A stretch of DNA of 64,000 nt from Patescibacteria group bacterium (GCA_043803385.1 JAZDKA010000041.1:19799-83798), one strand, 5' to 3'; positions 3,576 to 55,504 are shown, numbered from the stretch's first letter. Notes: a model not told the origin generated them from the sequence alone. Made by a program: numbers and translations.

Positions 3576-3700
3576 AATTAATTGCTACTACACAATTACA
3601 TATAGTAGTAATAAAAAACATTCTACACATTACTCCGACTGCAGGATTGTGTAGAAAAATTCTACAACACTTAACTCCGGCCGGACGTAAGTGTTATATA
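3576..3700 (+). repeat. Family H structured intergenic element, copy 2
   Basis: Same three-hairpin architecture as 1727-1850. Stem substitutions are compensatory (tata..tata -> tcta..taga; ccgatcgg -> ccggccgg). Confidence 0.7.
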
Positions 3701-3721: not shown

Positions 3722-4555
3722 ATGGCAAATAAAGCTAAAAGAAAATATTCGATTGGAGTTTTTGATTCAGGTTTTGGCGGGCTTCAGATTTTGAAACATA
3801 TTGTCAAGGAGCTTCCTGAATATAATTATATTTATCTCGGAGATACAGCCAGAATTCCATATGGAAGCCGATCTCAAGAAAGTATCCTTAATTTTGCCAC
3901 TCAAGCTGTGGATTTTCTTTTCAAAAAAGATTGCAAGCTAATAATTTTCGCCTGTAATACTGTCTCGGCAAAGGCTCTTCGTAAAATTCAGAGGGAATAT
4001 TTACCGAGACATTATCCTGATAGAAAAGTTTTGGGAGTAATTATTCCAGCCGTTGAGGAAGTGACCAGCAAGGGCCACAACGCAATCGGGATTATTGCTA
4101 CGCAAGGCAGCGTTTCTTCCAATGCATTTGTCGAAGAAATAAAGAAAATTAATCCCAATGCTAAAGTTTTTCAACAAGCTTGTCCGCTGCTGGTTCCAAT
4201 TGTGGAAGCAGGCGAGGAAAAATCAAAAGCAACAGGCATAATACTTGAAAAATATCTCAAGTCATTGCTCAAAAATAACATAGATGCTTTGATTTTGGGC
4301 TGCACGCATTACGGTTTTTTAGAGAATAAAATTAAAAAAATAATAGGAAAAAACATTGAAGTTATTAGCGAGGGGAAAATAGCAGCTAAGAAATTAAGAG
4401 AATATTTGTTAAAACATCCTGAAATAGAAAAAGCACTTGGTCAAAGTTCAAAAATAAATTTTTTTACAACTGATTTAACTGAAGAGTTTGAAATTATGGG
4501 AAGCAAATTTTTTGGCAAAAAAATTGTTCCACAGAAAGCAAAAATAGATAAATAA
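3722..4555 (+). CDS. murI: Glutamate racemase
   Basis: Has VFDSGFGGL, FACNTVSA and LGCTHY catalytic-cysteine motifs. Length 277 aa. Confidence 0.85.
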   Translation: MANKAKRKYSIGVFDSGFGGLQILKHIVKELPEYNYIYLGDTARIPYGSRSQESILNFATQAVDFLFKKDCKLIIFACNTVSAKALRKIQREYLPRHYPDRKVLGVIIPAVEEVTSKGHNAIGIIATQGSVSSNAFVEEIKKINPNAKVFQQACPLLVPIVEAGEEKSKATGIILEKYLKSLLKNNIDALILGCTHYGFLENKIKKIIGKNIEVISEGKIAAKKLREYLLKHPEIEKALGQSSKINFFTTDLTEEFEIMGSKFFGKKIVPQKAKIDK

Positions 4556-25019: not shown

Positions 25020-25145
25020 AAATTAAGTCCTACCAATTTACTATGCTTTAATGATACAAAATATTTCAAAGGGTGTCAAATTTAAACAAAAAAATAAGAG
25101 GGTTAACTCTTTTCGCTCACGCGTTTTTAGAGTCAACCCTCATTT

Positions 25146-25487
25146 TCATATCCCGAGTGTTTTTTTTACTGCATCCGACAATTCATATTCCGAGCAACTA
25201 TGGGCGTTGTCTCTTACTTTTCTAAATGAGAATCCCCAGCTAGGAATATTGGTTATGCCAAAAATTGGTGTTTCTTCCTCGATTGACCTTATAAATTTCT
25301 CAATCTCAGAAAAATCGTGGGTAAGAAGTATCGCCACGGCATCGACTACTTCATTCTTAAGGATCTTTATTGCTTCCTCAATCGAATTAGACTGAAGCAG
25401 ATTTACCTCTCCAATGAATTCCAGAGCCAGTCTTCTGAGAAAACAGAGGTCCGGATGAATCAAAAGCAAGTTCTTTTCATTAGCCAT
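25146..25487 (-). CDS. Hypothetical protein (degenerate receiver-like fold?), foreign-looking with strong SD
   Basis: A 113-aa ORF preceded by AAGGAGGGACAGCA-ATG. No conserved Asp pocket is recognisable. Confidence 0.4.
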   Translation of the reverse strand: MANEKNLLLIHPDLCFLRRLALEFIGEVNLLQSNSIEEAIKILKNEVVDAVAILLTHDFSEIEKFIRSIEEETPIFGITNIPSWGFSFRKVRDNAHSCSEYELSDAVKKTLGI

Positions 25488-25613
25488 TGCTGTCCCTCCT
25501 TATTTATTTTTCATTTCATACTGCGTTGGTAGATATTATCTGATAAATCGGAAATAGTCAAGCGGCGGCTTGATACTTCATACTTTCTACTTTATACTTA
25601 AAAGTAGATACTA

Positions 25614-25784
25614 TCCCAGCACCAATTCCGAGATAGTCTTTAATAAATTTGATAGTTTATTCTTGGAATCGCCTCGCCTGAGGCAGGCTTGGCTTTAGCT
25701 GGTTATGGTATGAAATTCACATTGCGAATTAGTGCGGGATGCTCAATTTTATAGCTACTCGCTCTGCTCGCAGACAAAATTGGC
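25614..25784 (-). repeat. Family B MITE-like element copy B1, abutting the start codon of the PD-(D/E)XK nuclease gene
   Basis: TIRs atcccagcaccaattcc / gaattagtgcgggatgc and the conserved core aggcgattcc. It ends ...cgcagacaaaattggc-ATG. Confidence 0.75.
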
Positions 25785-34976: not shown

Positions 34977-35846
34977 CTATTCTTTTTTACAAAGCAGCTC
35001 GTTTATATATTTCTTTAAATCTTCTCCGATATCCTTTCTTTCAAATGCGTAGGACAGCATAGCTTTCATATAGTTAAGGGGATCTCCTGTTGTGAGCCAT
35101 TCTCCGTCTTCAATTTTTTTCGCTATAAATTTTCCGCCATTTTTAACATATGTCCTAATGGCATCGACAATCCAGAGCTCGTTGCCTTTTCCCAGGGCGG
35201 TATCCTTTAAAATATTGATGAATTCCTGATCCAAAATCATTCTTCCAAAGTCAGCCAAATTAGAAGGGGCTTTTTCAATAGGGGGTTTTTCGATAATATC
35301 CTCAATTTCCATCGTTCCTTCTTTTAGCTTCACTATTCCGTATCGATTTAAGACTTCTTTTGGCATTTCCTGGACTCCAATCATAAGATTGCCATTTTTT
35401 TCATATTCATCAACCATTTGCTTAGTGAAAGAAACTTTTGATTTAACTAAATCATCGCCGAAGGCGAAAACAAAAGGCTCATCATCAACCAGGCTAGCGG
35501 CAGATAAAACCGGAGTCCCATTTCCGTAGGGTCCTTTTTGGCGAACATAAATAAAATTTGCCATATCTGCTATATTTTTTACCATGTTTGCCAACTCGGT
35601 TTTTCCGTTTTTTTCAAGATCGTCCTCCAGCGCGATACTGTGGTCAAAATGATCCTCCAATGGTTTTTTGTCCCATTTTGTAACCATTATTATATCTTCT
35701 ATCCCGGCTTCTACCATTTCTTCAACGAGTAATTGTATTATCGGTTTATCGACAATCGGAATCATTTCCTTAGGCATTGATTTGGTGGCTGGAAGAAGTC
35801 TTGTTCCTGAACCGGCGACTGCAATTACCGCTTTTTTGATCTTCAT
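34977..35846 (-). CDS. galU: UTP--glucose-1-phosphate uridylyltransferase
   Basis: AVIAVAGSGTRLLPATKSMPKEMIPIVDKPIIQ... Confidence 0.85.
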   Translation of the reverse strand: MKIKKAVIAVAGSGTRLLPATKSMPKEMIPIVDKPIIQLLVEEMVEAGIEDIIMVTKWDKKPLEDHFDHSIALEDDLEKNGKTELANMVKNIADMANFIYVRQKGPYGNGTPVLSAASLVDDEPFVFAFGDDLVKSKVSFTKQMVDEYEKNGNLMIGVQEMPKEVLNRYGIVKLKEGTMEIEDIIEKPPIEKAPSNLADFGRMILDQEFINILKDTALGKGNELWIVDAIRTYVKNGGKFIAKKIEDGEWLTTGDPLNYMKAMLSYAFERKDIGEDLKKYINELLCKKE

Positions 35847-35849
35847 AAA

Positions 35850-35941
35850 TTCTAACCGATTCGAAATTACGAAAAATTATGCGAATCTGCAAAATTTTTG
35901 TTCGTAGATTCGCATTCAATTCGTAGTTTCGCATCGGGTCT
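35850..35941. repeat. Degenerate family A-related repeat (tacgaa/ttcgtag motifs)
   Basis: cgaaattacgaa...ttcgtagattcgcat...aattcgtag. Confidence 0.45.
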
Positions 35942-40930: not shown

Positions 40931-41926
40931 CTATAATTCACCTTTTAAAAGCTGATTTAATCTTTTCTTTAATTCCTCCTGTGTCGGTTCACGGTGAAAA
41001 TTAACAGATTCTTTCTTGCTTGCCGCAGTTTGTTTTTCGGGCTTTATTTCTTCTTTAATTTCTCGTTGTTCAGCAATACTTTCCTTAACAGGCTTTGCGT
41101 TTTTAATTATGTTATTTCTAAAATATTCTTCATCAATAAAGGGCAAGTTTCCCGGAACATTGGAAACTCCCGGAAGATTTTCTGGCGCGGAAGAAATTTT
41201 GGCCGGAATTTTAGGTTTTGTTTCTTCCGGCTTTTTTTCTTGAGTTTCAGGAAGTTTTTCAAGCTCTTTGAAATAGTTTTCTTCCACCGGAATTTCTATT
41301 TTCGGCTTTTTCCCAAAATCAAATTTAGGAAAACTAATTTTTATTTCCCGGCTTTTTTGCAGGAAATAGCTTGAGATAAAACCTAAAATAAAAGAAATCC
41401 CGGTTCCGATGGCAAGGCTTATTAAAATTGCCAAAACCCAGTTATCAAATGCCGGCCGGACAGCCGGCTCTTCAATTATTCGAAGGTCAACATCATTTTT
41501 AATGTCATAATAAAAACTCACAACGCTGAAAAGCGTAGAAACAGTTGCGTTGGAAATTAATTTAGCCTCGCCGGGACTCTGGGAAACGGCGGTTATTTTT
41601 ACTATCGAACTTTTCTTTTCCTTTTTGGCTTTAATCATTTCGTCCCATAACTTTTTTCTTTTATTATCAGAAAGGCCGGAAAATTTGTCCTCCAGTTTGT
41701 TATCCTTTATCAGTTTTTCATAGAAAGACAGCTTTGTCGGGAAAACTTCCAAATTTCCAATTATATTTCCCGAATCTGAAGCAGCCTTTTCGCTTTTAGG
41801 AATGAAAATAATTGAAATTTCCGATTCATAATTCCGGTAATTTCCCAGAATAAAAAGAAAGGCAACCGCTGAAAGTATCAAGGATATCAGTATTAATGAT
41901 AATTTATTTCTAAACATAAGATTCAA
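40931..41926 (-). CDS. Wzz-like polysaccharide co-polymerase (chain-length determinant) with Lys/Pro/Glu-rich C-terminal tail
   Basis: Two TM segments flank a soluble domain. Has the EPAVRPAFDNW...AILISLAIGTGISF proline/glycine motif before TM2. Confidence 0.5.
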   Translation of the reverse strand: MNLMFRNKLSLILISLILSAVAFLFILGNYRNYESEISIIFIPKSEKAASDSGNIIGNLEVFPTKLSFYEKLIKDNKLEDKFSGLSDNKRKKLWDEMIKAKKEKKSSIVKITAVSQSPGEAKLISNATVSTLFSVVSFYYDIKNDVDLRIIEEPAVRPAFDNWVLAILISLAIGTGISFILGFISSYFLQKSREIKISFPKFDFGKKPKIEIPVEENYFKELEKLPETQEKKPEETKPKIPAKISSAPENLPGVSNVPGNLPFIDEEYFRNNIIKNAKPVKESIAEQREIKEEIKPEKQTAASKKESVNFHREPTQEELKKRLNQLLKGEL

Positions 41927-43088
41927 CTTTTTTACTTAATGCATTTAATTTTTTCTTTTCTTTGCTTTCCGCTGCCAGTTCGTATATCCGGAGAGTTTTT
42001 CTGGTAATTGAATCCCAGCTGAATTGCTTTTGGATTCTTTCCCTGGCCATTCTTCCCATTTTTTGGGTCTCAAGAGGCTTGTTTAAAATATATGACATTA
42101 CTTCTTTGGTATTTTCGAGGCTGCTGGAATTAAAAACGAATCCGCATTTTCCAACAGTTTCCAGATTGCTATGGCTTCCGCAAACCAATGGCGCCGTTTT
42201 CGAGTTCATTGCTTCGATAAGCCTCATAGGAATTTCCTCGCTGCTGGAAGGCTGGATGAAAAGATAGGCATGGGACAGAAGCTGTTCTGCTGAAGAGCGG
42301 TTTTGTTTTTCGGTAAAAATAATGCTATTTCTTCCCTTGATTATTTTTTTGATAAAAGTTTTTTGTTTGCTGTTTAGAAGCGCGTCCCCCAAAAGCAAAA
42401 GCTTGAATCCGTTGGCAATTTTACTGGTGTCTTCTATTTTCTTGAAAGCGCTGATTATCTTTTCTACTGCTTCGCTGACTTCCGGCTTTATTTCCATCAC
42501 TATATATTTTTTCTCCTTGAGTTCCCAGCGTTCCAGCGACTTTGTTCCGGCGTCATATTTCAAAGATGGTCCGGTTGGGATATGGATGATGTTTCTTCTG
42601 TATTGGCTAAGCGCGTATCTTTTCAAAACTTTACTAGTAGTGATGATCCTTTCTGAAATGTCAAAAAATATTTTTTCCGATAACTTGATAATTTTTTTCT
42701 CAAGCCGCCCCCTATTTTCCTGGAGATAATTCCGGCTGTGAAAAGTCGAAATGAAAGCTGTTTTTCTTTTTAGCAGTTTTAGGATAATTCCAAAAAAAGA
42801 AGATTCAATTCCCTGAAAATGGATAACATCGTATTTTTTGAAAATAATTTTGAAAGTAGTGAACAGAAAATGGCTGGCTCTTTTCATTTTTCTTGATCCA
42901 AATCCGGAAACGCGGACGAACTTTACTCCTTCTGATTCAAAAAAATCTTTGCCATTGTGGCATTTTTCGACATAGGAAAAAACGTCGTGTCCCCTTTCGG
43001 CGAGGCGAATCGCCAGTTCTTCAATATATCTGTCGATTTCCCGGCTAGTGGCGGGAAATTCCTTTTGTCCGATAAAGGCAATGCGCAT
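41910..43088 (-). CDS. Glycosyltransferase family 4 (GT1 fold)
   Basis: MRIAFIGQKEFPATSREIDRYIEELAIRLAERGHDV (GT4 N-terminus) and a C-terminal E..E motif region. Confidence 0.75.
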   Translation of the reverse strand: MRIAFIGQKEFPATSREIDRYIEELAIRLAERGHDVFSYVEKCHNGKDFFESEGVKFVRVSGFGSRKMKRASHFLFTTFKIIFKKYDVIHFQGIESSFFGIILKLLKRKTAFISTFHSRNYLQENRGRLEKKIIKLSEKIFFDISERIITTSKVLKRYALSQYRRNIIHIPTGPSLKYDAGTKSLERWELKEKKYIVMEIKPEVSEAVEKIISAFKKIEDTSKIANGFKLLLLGDALLNSKQKTFIKKIIKGRNSIIFTEKQNRSSAEQLLSHAYLFIQPSSSEEIPMRLIEAMNSKTAPLVCGSHSNLETVGKCGFVFNSSSLENTKEVMSYILNKPLETQKMGRMARERIQKQFSWDSITRKTLRIYELAAESKEKKKLNALSKKVESYV

Positions 43089-43239
43089 AAAACCGATGCG
43101 AATCTACGAATTAAATGCGAATCTACGAAATGTATGAATCGCGAAGTTGACTTAGTAATCTAGCAAAGATGAGTTATATTGTCAATGTTTTTAGGCTTCA
43201 ATAATATTCGGATAGTTTTAATTTATAAATTTCATAAAT

Positions 43240-43284
43240 CAGACAATTACTTTGATACTTTCGAGTATCAAAGTAATTGTCTGA
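43240..43284. repeat. Perfect 20-bp-stem hairpin (cagacaattactttgatact-ttcg-agtatcaaagtaattgtctg)
   Basis: Seen directly in sequence. Tetraloop ttcg. Confidence 0.8.
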
Positions 43285-43625
43285 TAGTGATAAAATAGAT
43301 TTGAAAGGTTAGCTTAGGATAAATTAAAATTTCGTGGAGTATGCATAAATTAAAAGCGGGTAGTGCTCGATGGCTCTACCCGCGGTATTTCTATGACTTT
43401 CACCTCTCGTTTGAAAGGATTTTTTTCGAGTTTAAGTTTTGAATCTTTGAATTTTGATAAAAATCTAAACTAACTGCAATACTTTCTGCCCACGGATGTG
43501 GAATAGATTGTATATCAGACCTCCTAAGGGAGAATCTAGTGCATGCTTGAAAACTCCAAGGAGTATTTCAAGATATCACCTACCAAGGTAGAGTGATATT
43601 AAGCTAGAAGAACTTAAGATATTGG

Positions 43626-43660
43626 GGAATCCAGACTGTTTTCAATCTGGACTCCCCCTT
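43626..43660. terminator. Hairpin ggggaatccagact...atctggactcccc + T-run, at the junction with the foreign-like island
   Basis: On the plus strand it is followed by tttctgttt. It lies immediately 3' of the minus-strand gene 43666-44664. Confidence 0.5.
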
Positions 43661-43665
43661 TCTGT

Positions 43666-44664
43666 TTAACCGATGATCTGAACTTCCGCATCATGACCGC
43701 CTGCCAGATGTGAGAAAAGTGCCTGTTGCTGACGGGAATGCAGGTCTGCCTTGCCCTCATATTCACCCATGAGGAACTTCATGGCAGTGGTTCTGCAATC
43801 GTTGTACGCCTTTGTGAAATTGTCCGTATGCTTCCGTTCTATTTCCGACGGAAACGGAACTTCGGCAATACCTTCACTGGGCACATAGGTTGTGATGTAA
43901 TATCCGTCTATAATGCGTGGCCGTACAATTGCTGTGCGACCATTGTAGCTTACCCTTACCGTAAGCGGTTTGAGTCTTTTTACTTCCTCTGCCGTTTTTG
44001 ACGGCAGCGTATTCACGGTATAAATTGTTTCGGCATGATTCTGAGCGATTTGTTCGCCCAGTCCGGTAATCGCGGTCTGGATTTCTCCCAAATTACGATT
44101 AGTCGCTTGCTGTCGTCTTTCCCCGTCCTGCCTGCGTCTTTCGTCCTGGCGCCGGTTATAAAGAATATATGCGCCGAGACCAAGGAAGCCGAAGATCAAA
44201 ATTGCTGCCATTATCCGGAAGTTTTTGACAATCATGTCGGATACGTTTCCGAGTCTTTCGTAGAGCCAATCAATGTTGCTCGCATTGACTCTATTGGCTT
44301 CCGTATTTTTGATAACAGCGTCTGCGAGCTTATCCACTGATTTCATCGCAGACTTGTGTACCTCCAGGGCAGCTGCATTCGCTCCTTCGACGGCAACTTT
44401 TATTTTTTTGTCGAGAGCATTAAACGCTCCCTCAACCTTGCCGTCCTTGCTTCCGAGGAGTTTCTTCTCGAGACCGTAGACGCTCCCGACTTTCTTCTGG
44501 ACCGCTTTCGCAATCCCCTCCTCGGTAATCTGAGCCGGCTGAGCCGACTGTCCGGCAACGGACGTGTTGCTGTCAACCTGCGGTACTTTAATTTCCGCTT
44601 GTGCCGTGAAAGACACAAGCACCAATGTCAAGATGGCCATAATGGCCAGAATTTTTGTTCTCAT
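43666..44664 (-). CDS. Hypothetical secreted/membrane protein, foreign-looking (GC ~50%, strong SD)
   Basis: Signal peptide, a central TM segment, and an RRQDERRRQDGERRQ stretch. Preceded by AAGGAGGCATCG-ATG. Confidence 0.55.
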   Translation of the reverse strand: MRTKILAIMAILTLVLVSFTAQAEIKVPQVDSNTSVAGQSAQPAQITEEGIAKAVQKKVGSVYGLEKKLLGSKDGKVEGAFNALDKKIKVAVEGANAAALEVHKSAMKSVDKLADAVIKNTEANRVNASNIDWLYERLGNVSDMIVKNFRIMAAILIFGFLGLGAYILYNRRQDERRRQDGERRQQATNRNLGEIQTAITGLGEQIAQNHAETIYTVNTLPSKTAEEVKRLKPLTVRVSYNGRTAIVRPRIIDGYYITTYVPSEGIAEVPFPSEIERKHTDNFTKAYNDCRTTAMKFLMGEYEGKADLHSRQQQALFSHLAGGHDAEVQIIG

Positions 44665-44674
44665 CGATGCCTCC

Positions 44675-46087
44675 TTATCGTTTGAGTTCTTCGTATTTAT
44701 CAGGAATAGAATCTAGCTTCTTCTCCTGCCCGTGCCTTATCGCTATCTCTTTCCCTTTGAGTTCGAGAATGGCCAAAGCCCAGTTGTAGCGGACCTTGTA
44801 AATGACATTCTGCGCCCCACTCAGGGTTGAGGTTTTGATGTGCTTCTTGGTTTTGGGGTCTTTCTTTGACTCATGGCCATTATTGAAATCCCGTTCGGCA
44901 ATCTCATACTGTTTGATTGCTTTTTCAAGAAGCTCCTTGTTGGTTCTGCCAGTGCAGAAATACCAATCAAGGTAAGCATCTCCGTATTCCTTCCGGAGCC
45001 GTTCGTTGTTATAGGAAGGTGTATCGCAGAATAGCGTACCTTCCTCCATTTCCTTGATCTTTTCGATATAAATTGATGGATTGCAGACTGGCTTCGGTGG
45101 CTCGACTTTCGGTGGCGGACATGGTTCCGGCTTTTTTTCCACAATCACTACTTTAGTTTTTGGTGGAGGAGGCGGACTGCAAATATCCACACCGTTTGGC
45201 GGCGTAGTCGGTCCATCATTAAGAGCTAGAACCATCCAGTCATATGCCGTATCGACATATGCTTCGGTCGTTCCGATTAATCCGCCGAGTGACATAGCTA
45301 CTGCCGTGTCGTCCGGCGAACCAAACAGTTTTGCTCCGGCTGCTCCAGATCCAATTGAGAACCCGGAATTTTTCGGGTCTCTGCGCATCCTGTAGAATGC
45401 AAAGACCCGGCTGGTATTGGTCGTCGCCTTAGCTTCCGCCAAGCAACGTCCCAATGCCGCTCCTTTCGGCCACCCATAGTAACCCTCGCATTCGAACTCA
45501 CCTAAGAGTTGGTCACTCGGATAAATCATAGATGAATCCCAATTCAGGATCACCACAGGTTTGTTATCCGAGTTTCCATTGAATGGCACATGAATAACTT
45601 TTTTCACTTCACCTGAAAAGAGCTTGTGAAAAAATCCGCCTTTCCGGTCCGAGAACGAACCGGAACTTCCTGTGTTGCTAAGTCGCTCTTTGGTATAAAT
45701 CCGATAGAGCGGCTGGCATAAGAAAGGTTTCCAACCGTCAACAGTCGGAAAGAGTGGAGCTCCGACGAAACTTCCTACGGGACCAGGTAACGCAGTGATA
45801 TGTTCCCGCTTATCTTCACTGACATATGTGTTAGTCAGCGAATTATCTGCGGAAGAATTTCCGCTGGTGGCATTTGCGTTGCCACCCTTTCCACCAATAC
45901 CAATAGCAGTCTGTTTCTGCTGTTGGTCTTGATTTTGCTTTTGATTCTGATCCTGCGTGGCGTTTCCGCCGGTTGATGTCGCAGTATTCGAGTTTGAATT
46001 ATCAACATTCGTGCTGACGTCTGCCAACACTGGTCCTGTAAAAATCAGGACCGCCAATGCCATAAATACTACAAAAACTGTCTTCAT
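44675..46087 (-). CDS. Hypothetical secreted protein, foreign-looking. Its N-terminal module matches that of the LPXTG protein at 47450-47995.
   Basis: Signal peptide. ADVSTNVDNSNSNTATSTGGNATQ matches ADVNVSVKNTNKNTATATGGTATQ. A proline-rich PPPPKTKVV...PEPCPPPKVEPPKP segment. Preceded by GGAGGTGCAAT-ATG. Confidence 0.55.
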   Translation of the reverse strand: MKTVFVVFMALAVLIFTGPVLADVSTNVDNSNSNTATSTGGNATQDQNQKQNQDQQQKQTAIGIGGKGGNANATSGNSSADNSLTNTYVSEDKREHITALPGPVGSFVGAPLFPTVDGWKPFLCQPLYRIYTKERLSNTGSSGSFSDRKGGFFHKLFSGEVKKVIHVPFNGNSDNKPVVILNWDSSMIYPSDQLLGEFECEGYYGWPKGAALGRCLAEAKATTNTSRVFAFYRMRRDPKNSGFSIGSGAAGAKLFGSPDDTAVAMSLGGLIGTTEAYVDTAYDWMVLALNDGPTTPPNGVDICSPPPPPKTKVVIVEKKPEPCPPPKVEPPKPVCNPSIYIEKIKEMEEGTLFCDTPSYNNERLRKEYGDAYLDWYFCTGRTNKELLEKAIKQYEIAERDFNNGHESKKDPKTKKHIKTSTLSGAQNVIYKVRYNWALAILELKGKEIAIRHGQEKKLDSIPDKYEELKR

Positions 46088-46283
46088 ATTGCACCTCCGT
46101 GCTGTATTTTTTGATTCTTTTTCCCTATATGAAACCGACTAGGTCGGTTATCTAAATTGTTAAAAAACATTCTTATCTATATTTTTATCCTCCTCCCATT
46201 TTAAGCAAAGTGTTAAGTAAACTATTACTTAAAACGGCAGAGGGACAATGGAATCAATCAGCGCCAGGCGCTGAACATGATTT

Positions 46284-46433
46284 TTATTGAGCCTCTAAAC
46301 TTAGAATATTTTCCTCTAATCTTTTTATCTCATTTTCAGCTAAATCAGCCTCTTTCCAATCCCCATTAAGGAACTGATTGGCTTGAAAAGCTATAAGATA
46401 TTCCAGTTTTTTCAGTAATTCAAATTTAGACAT
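46284..46433 (-). CDS. Possible small protein (49 aa) MSKFELLKKLEYLIAFQANQFLNGDWKEADLAENEIKRLEENILSLEAQ
   Basis: An ATG-initiated ORF below the ORF-track size cutoff, with host-like composition. Confidence 0.25.
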   Translation of the reverse strand: MSKFELLKKLEYLIAFQANQFLNGDWKEADLAENEIKRLEENILSLEAQ

Positions 46434-46492
46434 ATATTTAGGGTTAATTTTTATGGTATTTTCAGAACCTCGTATTCTAGCAGATAACTACA

Positions 46493-46575
46493 GTTCTGTC
46501 AACCCCGCACTAACTTTTTGCTGGCGTAGCCGATTTAGCGCTTTGCGCTTGCAAAAAGTTAGTGCGGGGCAAGTC
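46493..46575. repeat. Family E long-stem hairpin repeat (tgtcaaCCCCGCACTAACTTT...AAAGTTAGTGCGGGGcaag), copy 1; likely bidirectional terminator
   Basis: A 19-bp stem, T-rich on both sides. It is 3' of the sortase gene. Copy 2 is at 55381-55466. Confidence 0.75.
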
Positions 46576-46578
46576 TTT

Positions 46579-54248: not shown

Positions 54249-54304
54249 ACATCCTCCTTTGCGTTTTAAGCCCGCATGGCTTTAAGTTTTTTGAAACGAA
54301 CTAT

Positions 54305-54392
54305 GGGATTTTTCCCATTCAAACCCACAAAATAATTTATGAATTTGAATGGAGAGGGAATACTTGCGATGTTGCGTTGCAAGCATTCCCCG
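54305..54392. repeat. Family F element copy 2, contains hairpin gggaatacttgc/gcaagcattccc
   Basis: It lies 3' of the gene 54399-54941. Confidence 0.65.
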
Positions 54393-54398
54393 AAATTT

Positions 54399-54941
54399 CT
54401 ACTCCTCATGGATAAATTTCAGTAGCTTAATAACTGCTGGAATATCCTTGGGATGCTTGCGCAGGTTGTCTTCAACTCTCCTGCGGGCCTTCGCCAGTTC
54501 TTCTTCTGTCGGAAGAGCCTTGGCAAGTTCCCAATCTCTGACCAGCTCTAACTCAGCTTCTTCAAGTTTTTTCAGAAGCTCATTCCGAAGAGCCATGACA
54601 ACCTCCTTGGCCGTTGCTGGCCTAGAAAAAGAGTCTTTTTCTATTTCGCAATCCGAATCGCACTCCTCAGTATGCTCATGAGGCATCAACCAGCATACTT
54701 CAATGTCAAACCAACCCCCCGTGTGCTTATTTTTTCCCTCAAAGTAATAGCTCTGTATACTTACCCTGAGGATCTCCCCTTCTCTTAGGGGGAAATGATC
54801 AACTTTCATAAGGCTTTCATGGGTGAGTCCTAGAGATGCCAGTCTCTGGGCAAACTCATTTCTTGCTTCAACTTGACCCGCAAGCGAAGCGTCAAGAAGC
54901 GCCTTAATTTCCGCTAAATCTTTTTCTAATAAATCTTTCAT
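54399..54941 (-). CDS. Hypothetical protein, foreign-looking (strong SD, GC ~48%), cassette-like
   Basis: A 180-aa ORF preceded by AAAGGAGAAAAG-ATG. Acidic Cys/His patch HEHTEECDSDCE. Confidence 0.5.
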   Translation of the reverse strand: MKDLLEKDLAEIKALLDASLAGQVEARNEFAQRLASLGLTHESLMKVDHFPLREGEILRVSIQSYYFEGKNKHTGGWFDIEVCWLMPHEHTEECDSDCEIEKDSFSRPATAKEVVMALRNELLKKLEEAELELVRDWELAKALPTEEELAKARRRVEDNLRKHPKDIPAVIKLLKFIHEE

Positions 54942-55380
54942 CTTTTCTCCTTTGCTTCCAGGACTGAGCCCTAGAGCCTTGGATCACTTATATCTGTTTC
55001 TCTGCCATTACTGGTTCAGAGTGCCTAAAGCGAGGGATCTCGGTTTTCGCCGCCCGATTTCGATTTCAAATCGGGAAATATTTATTTTTTAAAACGAAAT
55101 TTCTCTTCTTTGCGAAGAGAGTGATGAAAAAGAATTTTTTTGATGGAAGTTTTGAAGGTTATATAATTGTTTAAAGCCTTAAACTATCCACCCCTCCTTT
55201 TCATCACTTTTTCCACAAAAATAAAAGCGACTAAGAAATTTTTCCGAAAAATTATTCGAGGAAGATTTCTCAATCGCTTTGGTAAATTTTTGAGTCTCTC
55301 TCCTCAATAATTTTTTTGAATTTTGATGAACTGTCATCTGATTTCAGCGTAACGGTCAAGCATATCATACAAAAAAGAAC

Positions 55381-55466
55381 CTGTCAACCCCGCACTAACT
55401 TTATACTGATTATTACAGGCTTTTAGCACCAAAGGTGCTGGTATAAAGTTAGTGCGGGGTCAAGCA
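55381..55466. repeat. Family E long-stem hairpin repeat copy 2 (3' of lepA)
   Basis: ctgtcaaccccgcactaacttt...aaagttagtgcggggtcaag, with a nested inner hairpin agcacc-aaa-ggtgct. Confidence 0.75.
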
Positions 55467-55504
55467 CAGATTCCTATTTTAGGCTTAGATAAAGGATAAT
55501 ATTT

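Follow-up and report, generated by a model that had tools for sequence, protein, structure and literature searches.

What is a hairpin-dense, gene-free stretch of DNA doing in a genome of a patescibacterium? In the very small, tightly packed genomes of these ultra-small bacteria, 300 nt of conserved non-coding sequence probably do not lie idle. The stretch lies at 43290-43665 of a 64,000-nt piece of DNA from a Patescibacteria group bacterium (GCA_043803385.1 JAZDKA010000041.1:19799-83798; the whole piece is called the window, and positions are counted from its first letter). A first-pass annotation had proposed an independent, possibly 6S-like, non-coding RNA (ncRNA) on the plus strand that ends in a stem-loop and a T-run. 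The gap concerned, 43089-43665 (577 nt), is flanked on both sides by minus-strand genes; it is downstream of one (43666-44664, gene 2) and upstream of the next (41910-43088). Here, we describe a family of structured elements to which this stretch belongs. With a probability of roughly 60%, it represents a structured 3′ untranslated region (UTR) of ~320 nt, from 43665 to ~43346 on the minus strand, of a two-gene operon for surface proteins.

Results

The element is conserved behind a gene pair

The segment 43089-43670 (582 nt, the gap plus 5 nt of gene 2) folds with minimum free energy z-scores of −9.2 (plus strand) and −10.4 (minus strand) relative to dinucleotide shuffles (n = 100), and 0 of the 100 shuffles fold as well. 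Per nucleotide, the gap is among the most structured gaps of the window. Several other gaps of 490-765 nt (for example, 25020-25784, 46088-46578 and 54942-55504) are strongly structured, too. The region is indeed gene-free, as had been annotated: open reading frames (ORFs) overlapping the gap have only 20-68 aa, those of 68 and 50 aa extend into the flanking genes, and none is conserved. A micro-ORF of 17 aa on the plus strand (43543-43596) was rejected, since there is neither a downstream gene nor conservation.

Relatives of the locus were found by way of gene 1, the neighbor of gene 2. It has 15 homologues in a word-based search (29-50% identity), and an HMMER scan gave 230 clusters for its family; a profile scan yielded only 3 loci. 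For gene 2, the word-based protein search matched only the protein itself ('MAG: hypothetical protein V1804_03895 [Patescibacteria group bacterium]'), and no relative was obtained by exact look-up or by scanning genome contigs and metagenome contigs. The contigs with gene 1 homologues have a conserved order of genes for DivIC, a PrsA-like rotamase, DUF5656, an HtrA protease, a small protein, a sortase, gene 1 and gene 2, followed by the gap and then by variable polysaccharide or glycosyltransferase genes. This is also the order in the window. In the syntenic loci, the gene-free gap after gene 2 is ~300-600 nt long, and the second genes share a weak but detectable homology.

The family set comprises 9 sequences from 8 distinct loci, i.e., the window, L002, L004, L006, L011, L020, L014, L016 and L018, of which L011 and L020 share one backbone and are counted as one locus. 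The relatives come from other Patescibacteria metagenomes. Conservation in related genomes had been suggested earlier as a check, and the architecture is indeed kept in all 9 sequences. A long hairpin, H1 (consensus GGGAGYCYGGA...), starts 7-13 nt past the stop codon and has no U-tract after it; in the window, too, it stands directly after the gene 2 stop, on the same strand as the sortase-linked gene pair. H1 is followed by 2-5 modules, hairpins of ~25 nt with an outer stem, an inner stem of 3-5 bp, often CUC(C)/(G)GAG, and a loop of 3-6 nt. The irregularity of a module is a single base left unpaired on the 5′ side or, alternatively, UU facing one base, and some members contain a three-tier hairpin around CCAC-N3-4-GUGG. 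The 3′ part consists of an AU-rich spacer, GAAAAAAA, a UCCUUUC...GRRAGG hairpin and GUAA-N-AUAUA. In every homologous locus, the end is a GC-rich hairpin with a U-run 290-350 nt past the stop; the TTGACA promoter of the next gene follows, as in the window. Between L002 and L014, the UTRs are 75% identical over 104 nt, whereas the gene-2 proteins are 38% identical.

The window holds one copy of the element. A blastn comparison of the gap with phage genomes gave no match, a 15-mer scan of viral contigs gave chance matches only, and a search with the glycosyltransferase led to one Patescibacteria locus (36% identical) that is without the element. In three loci, ORFs of 71-82 aa lie on the structured UTR: L018 4053-4301 (82 aa) and L004 6455-6685 (76 aa), which are public gene calls, and L016 4002-4217 (71 aa), taken from a mechanical ORF list. 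None of them is conserved from locus to locus, and these ORFs are probably erroneous calls.

Compensatory changes and covariance models

A MAFFT alignment of the 5′ block analyzed with RNAalifold recovered H1 and the module M2, with 15 of 23 pairs compensatory. In a covariance-model alignment of H1 and the modules M1 and M2 (37 pairs), 84% of the cells are paired compared to 72% in shuffles, and 28 of the 37 pairs have changed on both sides compared to 12.8 ± 2.3 in shuffles; none of 500 shuffles attains 28. As a control, the 3′ partners were slid by 1-3 columns, which left only 5-11 pairs with changes on both sides. Across the 9 sequences, H1 has 14 of 15 pairs changed on both sides and M2 (helix 3) 7 of 11, with an invariant C-G pair at the top of M2. 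Even the near-identical L011 and L020 differ in H1 by a double change from C-G to U-A. The values for M1 are conservative, since its register in L002, L004 and L006 was not repaired by realignment with the covariance model. MAFFT did not bring the terminator stems into register; covariation in hairpin P (see below) and in the terminator was read from the sequences and is not part of the score.

A covariance model built without the window (R2) found 43545-43670 on the minus strand with 58.7 bits (E = 8.8e-15), so that the 5′ block of the window (H1, M1, M2) is recognized by a model of the other members only. The only other match of R2 was the reverse of H1 on the plus strand with 10.1 bits. The family model detected nothing beyond the members in 215 kb of related loci and, up to E = 1, had 0 matches in unrelated DNA amounting to 684 kb, the contigs with viral chance matches serving as negative control. 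A weak match of the model R1 at 54288-54404 (minus strand) was rejected as merely a post-stop hairpin. As far as sequence comparison goes, these data demonstrate that the structure is real, conserved via compensatory changes, located on the minus strand and common to a family of at least 9 sequences with the same gene order.

The strand

Watson-Crick covariation cannot separate the strands, but G.U pairs can, and G.U pairs and energies were therefore compared. In H1 of the window, two irregular positions are A.C and C.A mismatches when read on the plus strand (−18.9 kcal/mol) but G.U when read on the minus strand, where the 15-bp stem is unbroken (−26.2 kcal/mol); the plus-strand stem is thus 7.3 kcal/mol weaker. 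In the nine UTRs, 73 local hairpins defined on the sense fold gave 73 G.U in sense versus 13 in antisense; sense is the more stable form for 52 of these hairpins and antisense for 13. Because this test had defined the hairpins on the sense fold, it was repeated with hairpins defined on the antisense fold, and again sense was favored (45 versus 25 G.U; 38 versus 18 hairpins more stable; Wilcoxon 3e-4). The local-fold energy is lower in sense in 10 of 10 UTRs, with G+T at ~0.5 on both strands. Strand-neutral counts of G.U versus A.C were 33 versus 20 with a first finder, contaminated by spurious stems, and 25 versus 17 with a second, a difference that is not significant and includes long-range chance stems. 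The bulge of the two-tier hairpins is on the 5′ side in 18 cases and on the 3′ side in 3, and two-tier hairpins with a 5′ bulge occur at 6.0 per kb compared to 0.5 per kb in the surrounding DNA, a 12-fold enrichment.

The terminal stem-loop with T-run that had been taken as the end of a plus-strand RNA is present at 43624-43667; it is H1 followed on the plus strand by tttctgttt (43659-43667). A role as plus-strand terminator is, however, not borne out. Apart from the weaker stem, the A-run before H1 from which the T-run derives occurs in the window, whereas 6 of 8 relatives (L002, L004, L011, L014, L016 and L018) lack it. In the window, this A-run abuts the stop codon of gene 2, and the plus-strand T-run overlaps the TAA at 43666-43668. 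A plus-strand stem with U-tract was found in the window only and is not conserved in the relatives. What stands of the earlier proposal is a non-coding, highly structured and RNA-like stretch; the independent plus-strand transcript is contradicted by G.U pairs, energies, models and homologues.

Elements of the window stretch

All hairpins named in the first-pass annotation are there. H1 (43624-43658; ggggaatccagac...gtctggactccccc), with 15 bp and an AAAA loop, begins 8 nt past the gene 2 stop, and no U-tract follows it on the minus strand, to which all elements in this paragraph refer. M1 (43573-43599) is a two-tier hairpin, AUAUCAC-U-CUAC-CUUG-GUAG-GUGAUAU, with the bulged U on the 5′ side; it is the atatcac/gtgatat stem with inner ctac-caag-gtag of the plus strand. 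Next to it, M2 (43546-43572), CUUGAAA-U-ACUC-CUUG-GAGU-UUUCAAG, noted before as cttgaaa/tttcaag with inner actc-caag-gagt, is also two-tiered and occurs in 9 of 9 family members. M3 (43517-43537) is a small hairpin, AGA-UU-CUCC-CUUA-GGAG-G-UCU, an instance of a recurring RRAUUCUC...GAG module; similar modules are found in L002, L004 and L014. M4 (43479-43513), AUAC..UCU..UCCAC-AUCC-GUGGG..AGA..GUAU, contains the ccac-ggat-gtgg stem at ~43490-43502; this three-tier hairpin (domain 155-199 of the window's UTR) is shared with L004 (domain 156-189) and L006 (domain 154-194), and the middle helix of these counterparts carries compensatory changes. An AU-rich, weakly structured spacer (only −3.8 kcal/mol for domain 202-244 of the window's UTR) precedes an A-run (43420-43427) and hairpin P (CCUUUC-AAAC-GAGAGG, 43403-43418). 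According to the alignment, A-run and P are the most sequence-conserved block of the family, and the P stem varies compensatingly (CCUUUCC/GGAAAGG, CCUCUC/GAGGGG, ACUUCU/AGAAGU).

The stretch ends in a predicted intrinsic terminator on the minus strand (43345-43383; −16.1 kcal/mol). Its 8-bp stem with 6 GC pairs, GCGGGUAG/CUACCCGC (43356-43383; the gcgggtag...ctacccgc of the first-pass annotation), is followed by UUUUAAUUUAU (43345-43355). A consensus terminator scanner missed this hairpin because its loop has 12 nt. It nevertheless combines stem, U-tract, position downstream of a gene and conservation, and together with the A-run and P it fits the family layout at 290-350 nt past the stop. 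Further on, at 43238-43285, there is a perfect inverted repeat of 22 bp with a 4-nt spacer and the minus-strand tail UUAUGAAAUUUAU (43225-43285 in total). This palindrome occurs once in the window and is not conserved in the homologous loci; with its U-rich tail, it could serve as an additional, back-up terminator, or it may have been inserted recently. L004 and L016 also have a second terminator-like hairpin.

None of this corresponds to a known RNA family. Rfam 15 at gathering thresholds gave 0 matches in the window and 0 in 12 homologous loci, and this includes 6S, RNase P, tmRNA, riboswitches, EAR, CsrB and others. The proposed relationship to 6S RNA thus found no match, and the view that it is not RNase P agrees with the scan; likewise, ARAGORN confirmed the absence of tRNA and tmRNA. 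In the whole window, there is neither a tRNA gene nor an Rfam family at gathering score. A permissive scan of the window (E up to 10) returned only miRNA-precursor noise on the palindrome at 43238-43285, and permissive scans of the loci gave hairpin-to-miRNA noise with no family recurring between loci. A literature search did not find a description of the element.

The predicted transcription unit

Upstream of gene 1, a putative operon promoter is located at 46474-46502 on the minus strand (−35 TTGACA at 46497-46502, extended −10 TGCTAGAAT at 46474-46482), followed by a 5′ UTR of ~380 nt. The near-consensus TTGACA-N17-TGCTAnAAT is found at the same place in 10 loci, and the 5′ UTR that follows has 150-400 nt across loci. 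Of the 9 sequences scanned, 8 (from 7 of the 8 distinct loci) have no comparable promoter within the final 200 nt of gene 2; L011 contains a single weak match (9/12). The distance from the stop codon to H1 is too short to fit a promoter. The next transcription unit, with the downstream glycosyltransferase gene, appears to start from a promoter of its own at 43157-43185 on the minus strand, TTGACA-N17-TGCTAGATT, with (TGC)TAGATT. The simplest reading would be one mRNA of promoter, 5′ UTR, gene 1, gene 2, a structured 3′ UTR of ~320 nt and terminator. Pairing between both UTRs was rejected: duplex predictions in 8 loci were no better than shuffles (z ~0).

The 5′ UTR has a peculiarity of its own. 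In seven loci, it contains a second conserved structured element, CUAUAU..UCGGCGCU-hairpin-AGCNCCG..AAAAUAUAG, that is not in Rfam. The 5′ UTR regions are 46088-46473 in the window, 1479-1778 in L002 and 3805-4095 in L004, with equivalents in L007, L008, L014, L016 and L018. The window seems to be without this element; it has an ORF of 49 aa (46284-46433, minus strand) that lacks an obvious ribosome-binding site. The sortase gene is immediately followed by an inverted repeat (46503-46569; arms of 24 nt), presumably the sortase terminator, which abuts the −35 box of the gene 1 promoter.

The genes around the element

Gene 1 (44675-46087, minus strand) encodes a secreted protein of 470 aa with a signal peptide, a Q/N-rich region, an alpha/beta domain and a TPR-like C-terminal domain. 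It has no meaningful Pfam match, only one sub-threshold hit to Androgen_recep (18.1 bits compared to a cut-off of 25.3), and neither a sequence nor a fold match in the PDB. Gene 2 (43666-44664, minus strand, stop codon TAA at 43666-43668) encodes 332 aa with a signal peptide and one central transmembrane helix. The GC content of this cassette (43666-46087) is 0.48 compared to ~0.36 in the surroundings. Past the gap, a family-4 glycosyltransferase is encoded on the minus strand (41910-43088). Just upstream of its start codon, the 15-mer ATGCGAATCTACGAA (on the other strand TTCGTAGATTCGCAT) is present in two tandem copies (43096-43133), and three more copies in both orientations lie at 35879-35934, upstream of the gene that starts at 35846 on the minus strand. 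This 15-mer is probably the operator for a regulator of polysaccharide genes.

In some relatives, repeats resembling miniature inverted-repeat transposable elements, starting with TGTCATTC(C/T)G... and ending with ...GGA(A)TGACA, are located in the non-coding flanks of the operon (L016 ~4300-4520 and 1440-1640; L011 ~2000-2070). Elsewhere in the window, two nearly identical hairpins of 38 nt (TTAATTGCTACTACACAAYTACATATAGTAGTAATAAA) are found in two different plus-strand intergenic gaps (1728-1765 and 3578-3615).

Discussion

How could such a 3′ UTR work? According to our model, transcription would begin at 46474-46502 and pass gene 1 and gene 2. 8 nt past the stop, the transcript would enter the 15-bp hairpin H1 and then four hairpins, of which three would be two- or three-tiered and two would have a single bulged U on the 5′ side. 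The AU-rich spacer and the A-run with the UCCUUUC/GAGAGG hairpin would come next, and the transcript would end at the GC hairpin with U-run (43383-43345). We assume that the element acts in cis on the fate of the operon mRNA. Stacked hairpins that end in a terminator are a classic barrier to 3′-to-5′ exonucleases. Here, they could block these enzymes and could also stop read-through into the independently promoted glycosyltransferase genes. The most likely roles would be protection of the 3′ end, transcriptional insulation or that of a protein-binding platform.

With its near-consensus promoter and a long UTR on either side, the operon looks designed for expression that is both high and stable. 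It encodes secreted or membrane proteins and is part of a cell-envelope gene cluster. Some features exceed what plain stability requires: the two-tier geometry, the constant side of the bulge, RRAUUCUC..GAG, the C-G pair of M2, the A-run and the single strands of GUAA-N-AUAUA. These extra features suggest recognition by a protein or RNase. Such a factor would read the modules and tune stability or processing of a strongly expressed, fast-evolving message for surface proteins.

Several observations weigh against a structured 3′ UTR that serves this operon. Taken alone, both strands of the window stretch fold about equally well (−96.5 versus −92.5 kcal/mol), and the strand call is therefore a family-level result. 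The sample is small and its members are related (9 sequences, 8 loci), and the alignment is partly fitted to the model. In L005, L008 and L021, the second gene is arranged differently and a plain short terminator takes the place of the element, and L007 has only an analogous arrangement that does not match the family. Apparently, the element is dispensable for the operon and would be a modulator rather than an essential part of it. Among the conserved neighbors scanned, no RNA-binding protein is evident, and a function as stabilizer or platform is a guess by analogy. Finally, transcription, 3′ ends and processing are all deduced from DNA sequence.

Four other explanations have to be considered. 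The stretch could give rise to a processed small RNA from the 3′ UTR: cleavage in the AU-rich spacer would free ~80 nt with A-run, P and terminator (~43427-43346, minus strand) that act in trans, with UCCUUUC pairing to ribosome-binding sites of other mRNAs. It would fit that this block is the most sequence-conserved part of the family, that a weakly structured, AU-rich spacer precedes it and that UCCUUUC is complementary to ribosome-binding sites of the GAAAGGA type upstream of gene 1 in several loci. However, UCCUUUC is held in the P stem in every member, its complementarity to the operon's own 5′ UTR is not significant (z ~0), the neighbors scanned included no Hfq- or ProQ-like gene, and the conserved upstream modules would be left unexplained, so that we regard this idea as unlikely. 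Much harder to maintain is the plus-strand ncRNA of the first-pass annotation, which in its explicit form would be ~330 or ~175 nt long, start from a promoter near 43301-43330 or 43454-43483, run antisense to the end of the gene 2 message and stop at the 43624-43658 hairpin with TTTCTGTTT. The plus strand of the window does fold as well as the minus strand and does have a hairpin with a T-rich run, and promoter-like hexamers are present at 43301-43330 (10/12) and 43454-43483, but such matches are expected in AT-rich DNA. The terminal stem with its A.C and C.A mismatches, the A-run missing in six relatives, the covariance model (10 bits on the plus versus 59 bits on the minus strand) and the family-wide asymmetry in G.U pairs and energies all favor the opposite strand, and this makes an independent plus-strand RNA highly improbable. 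The refuting alternative given with it, that the convergent gene simply has its 3′ UTR and terminator here, is essentially what we find; only the "simply" does not hold, since the UTR is a conserved, covarying family of ~320 nt.

In two comparisons, gene 1 and gene 2 together behave like a hypervariable cassette. L011 and L020 are 100% identical from 46 nt past the stop onward, whereas H1 is 82% and the end of gene 2 is 68% identical, with the sequence further upstream unalignable; in L002 and L004, the differences span gene 2 and the UTR, and the flanks are 81-96% identical. These differences, together with the deviating GC content of the cassette, would be in line with an element that acts as DNA, a homology anchor or recombination site for swapping the cassette, with hairpins formed by single-stranded DNA. 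A homology arm does not require compensatory changes, a constant bulge side or a G.U strand bias, which point to selection on a folded single strand in gene direction. In addition, the UTR is bracketed by stop codon and terminator, the recombination boundaries differ between L011/L020 and L002/L004, no recombinase was found among 16 neighboring proteins scanned, and the element is single-copy in 64 kb; we consider a DNA-level function very unlikely. The most sober explanation, an AT-rich spacer with ordinary terminators and chance palindromes, could refer to other well-structured long gaps such as 46088-46578 and 54942-55504 and to relatives that manage with a simple terminator. It can hardly be reconciled with fold z-scores of −9 to −10, with an architecture and covariation kept across proteins that are only 30-50% identical, with the 12-fold enrichment of two-tier hairpins with a 5′ bulge and with a leave-one-out model that finds the window; we give it next to no credit.

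If the UTR controls survival of the message, it would be a handle on the expression of surface proteins in organisms that are almost impossible to study genetically. The two surface proteins diverge extremely fast between otherwise identical strains and are candidates for the cell-surface layer or the host-contact machinery of these episymbionts. For the phylum, the element is a well-supported candidate RNA family with covariation, a defined strand and a fixed context, and our literature search found no comparable structured RNA there. There is also a practical aspect: gene callers may be misled, as seen from the spurious ORFs on this RNA in three loci.

Comparison with known systems

Since the organism belongs to the Patescibacteria, TIGR arrays of the TIGR-Tas systems come to mind, which occur in Candidate Phyla Radiation bacteria and in phages (PMC12045711). 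They are likewise a run of small hairpin-like RNA units that ends in a Rho-independent terminator (PMC12045711). In a TIGR array, edge and loop repeats of 8-12 nt alternate, the spacers have 9 nt, the unit measures ~36 nt and there are box C/D motifs (PMC12045711). In the element described here, each unit has mutually complementary arms, which sets them apart from spacers A and B. Moreover, TRF detected neither a 36-nt period nor alternating 8-12-nt edge/loop repeats, the box C motif RUGAUGA is absent from 43290-43665 on both strands, and a Pfam scan of 16 neighboring proteins revealed no Nop-domain (Tas) protein. A TIGR array was rejected on these grounds; an integron attC site was also rejected.

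CsrB and RsmZ are protein sponges with many small hairpins in one RNA. In this respect they resemble the element, but the loops in the window are CUUG, CUUG, CUUA, AUCC and AAAC, and GGA is in stems. With no GGA exposed in loops and no Rfam match, a CsrA sponge was rejected as well. A different parallel is the long 3′ UTR of icaR in Staphylococcus aureus, which pairs with its own ribosome-binding site. The element, too, is a long bacterial 3′ UTR rich in CUCC and UCCUUUC sequences of the anti-Shine-Dalgarno type; here, however, these are paired in local hairpins, and duplexes between 5′ and 3′ UTR are no better than shuffles in 8 loci.

In architecture, the 3′ UTR of the eukaryotic transferrin receptor is reminiscent of the element: tandem iron-responsive elements bind a protein there and control decay of the mRNA. 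In both cases, a 3′ UTR carries several consecutive hairpins, each with one base unpaired on its 5′ side, a few pairs beneath a small loop. The likeness is in architecture only, since the loops of 3-6 nt in this bacterium lack CAGUGN and the bulge is mostly U, not C. It is tempting to speculate that the two-tier hairpins in tandem, characterized by a 5′ bulged U and an RRAUUCUC..GAG core, make up an array dedicated to protein binding, and that this array sets half-life or processing of the mRNA for the hypervariable, strongly expressed pair of surface proteins. This would be a bacterial counterpart of the multi-hairpin decay switch of the transferrin receptor, with a recognition module not described before; we put this forward tentatively and think it rather unlikely.

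Closest in kind are the stabilizing stem-loops of bacterial mRNAs, intercistronic or 3′-terminal, such as the repetitive extragenic palindromic (REP) sequences and bacterial interspersed mosaic elements (BIME) downstream of malE in E. coli and the hairpins of the puf operon of Rhodobacter. In these cases as here, stable stem-loops come right after a coding region, and they are thought to block 3′-to-5′ exonucleases and to act as partial terminators or insulators. REP sequences are short, dispersed repeats in many copies, whereas the element is single-copy in 64 kb, has ~320 nt in fixed order, is tied to one operon and is conserved by covariation and not by repetition of a sequence. Judging from its sequence and that of its relatives, we class it as a new RNA family within a known kind, that of structured bacterial 3′ UTRs and elements at the ends of mRNAs.

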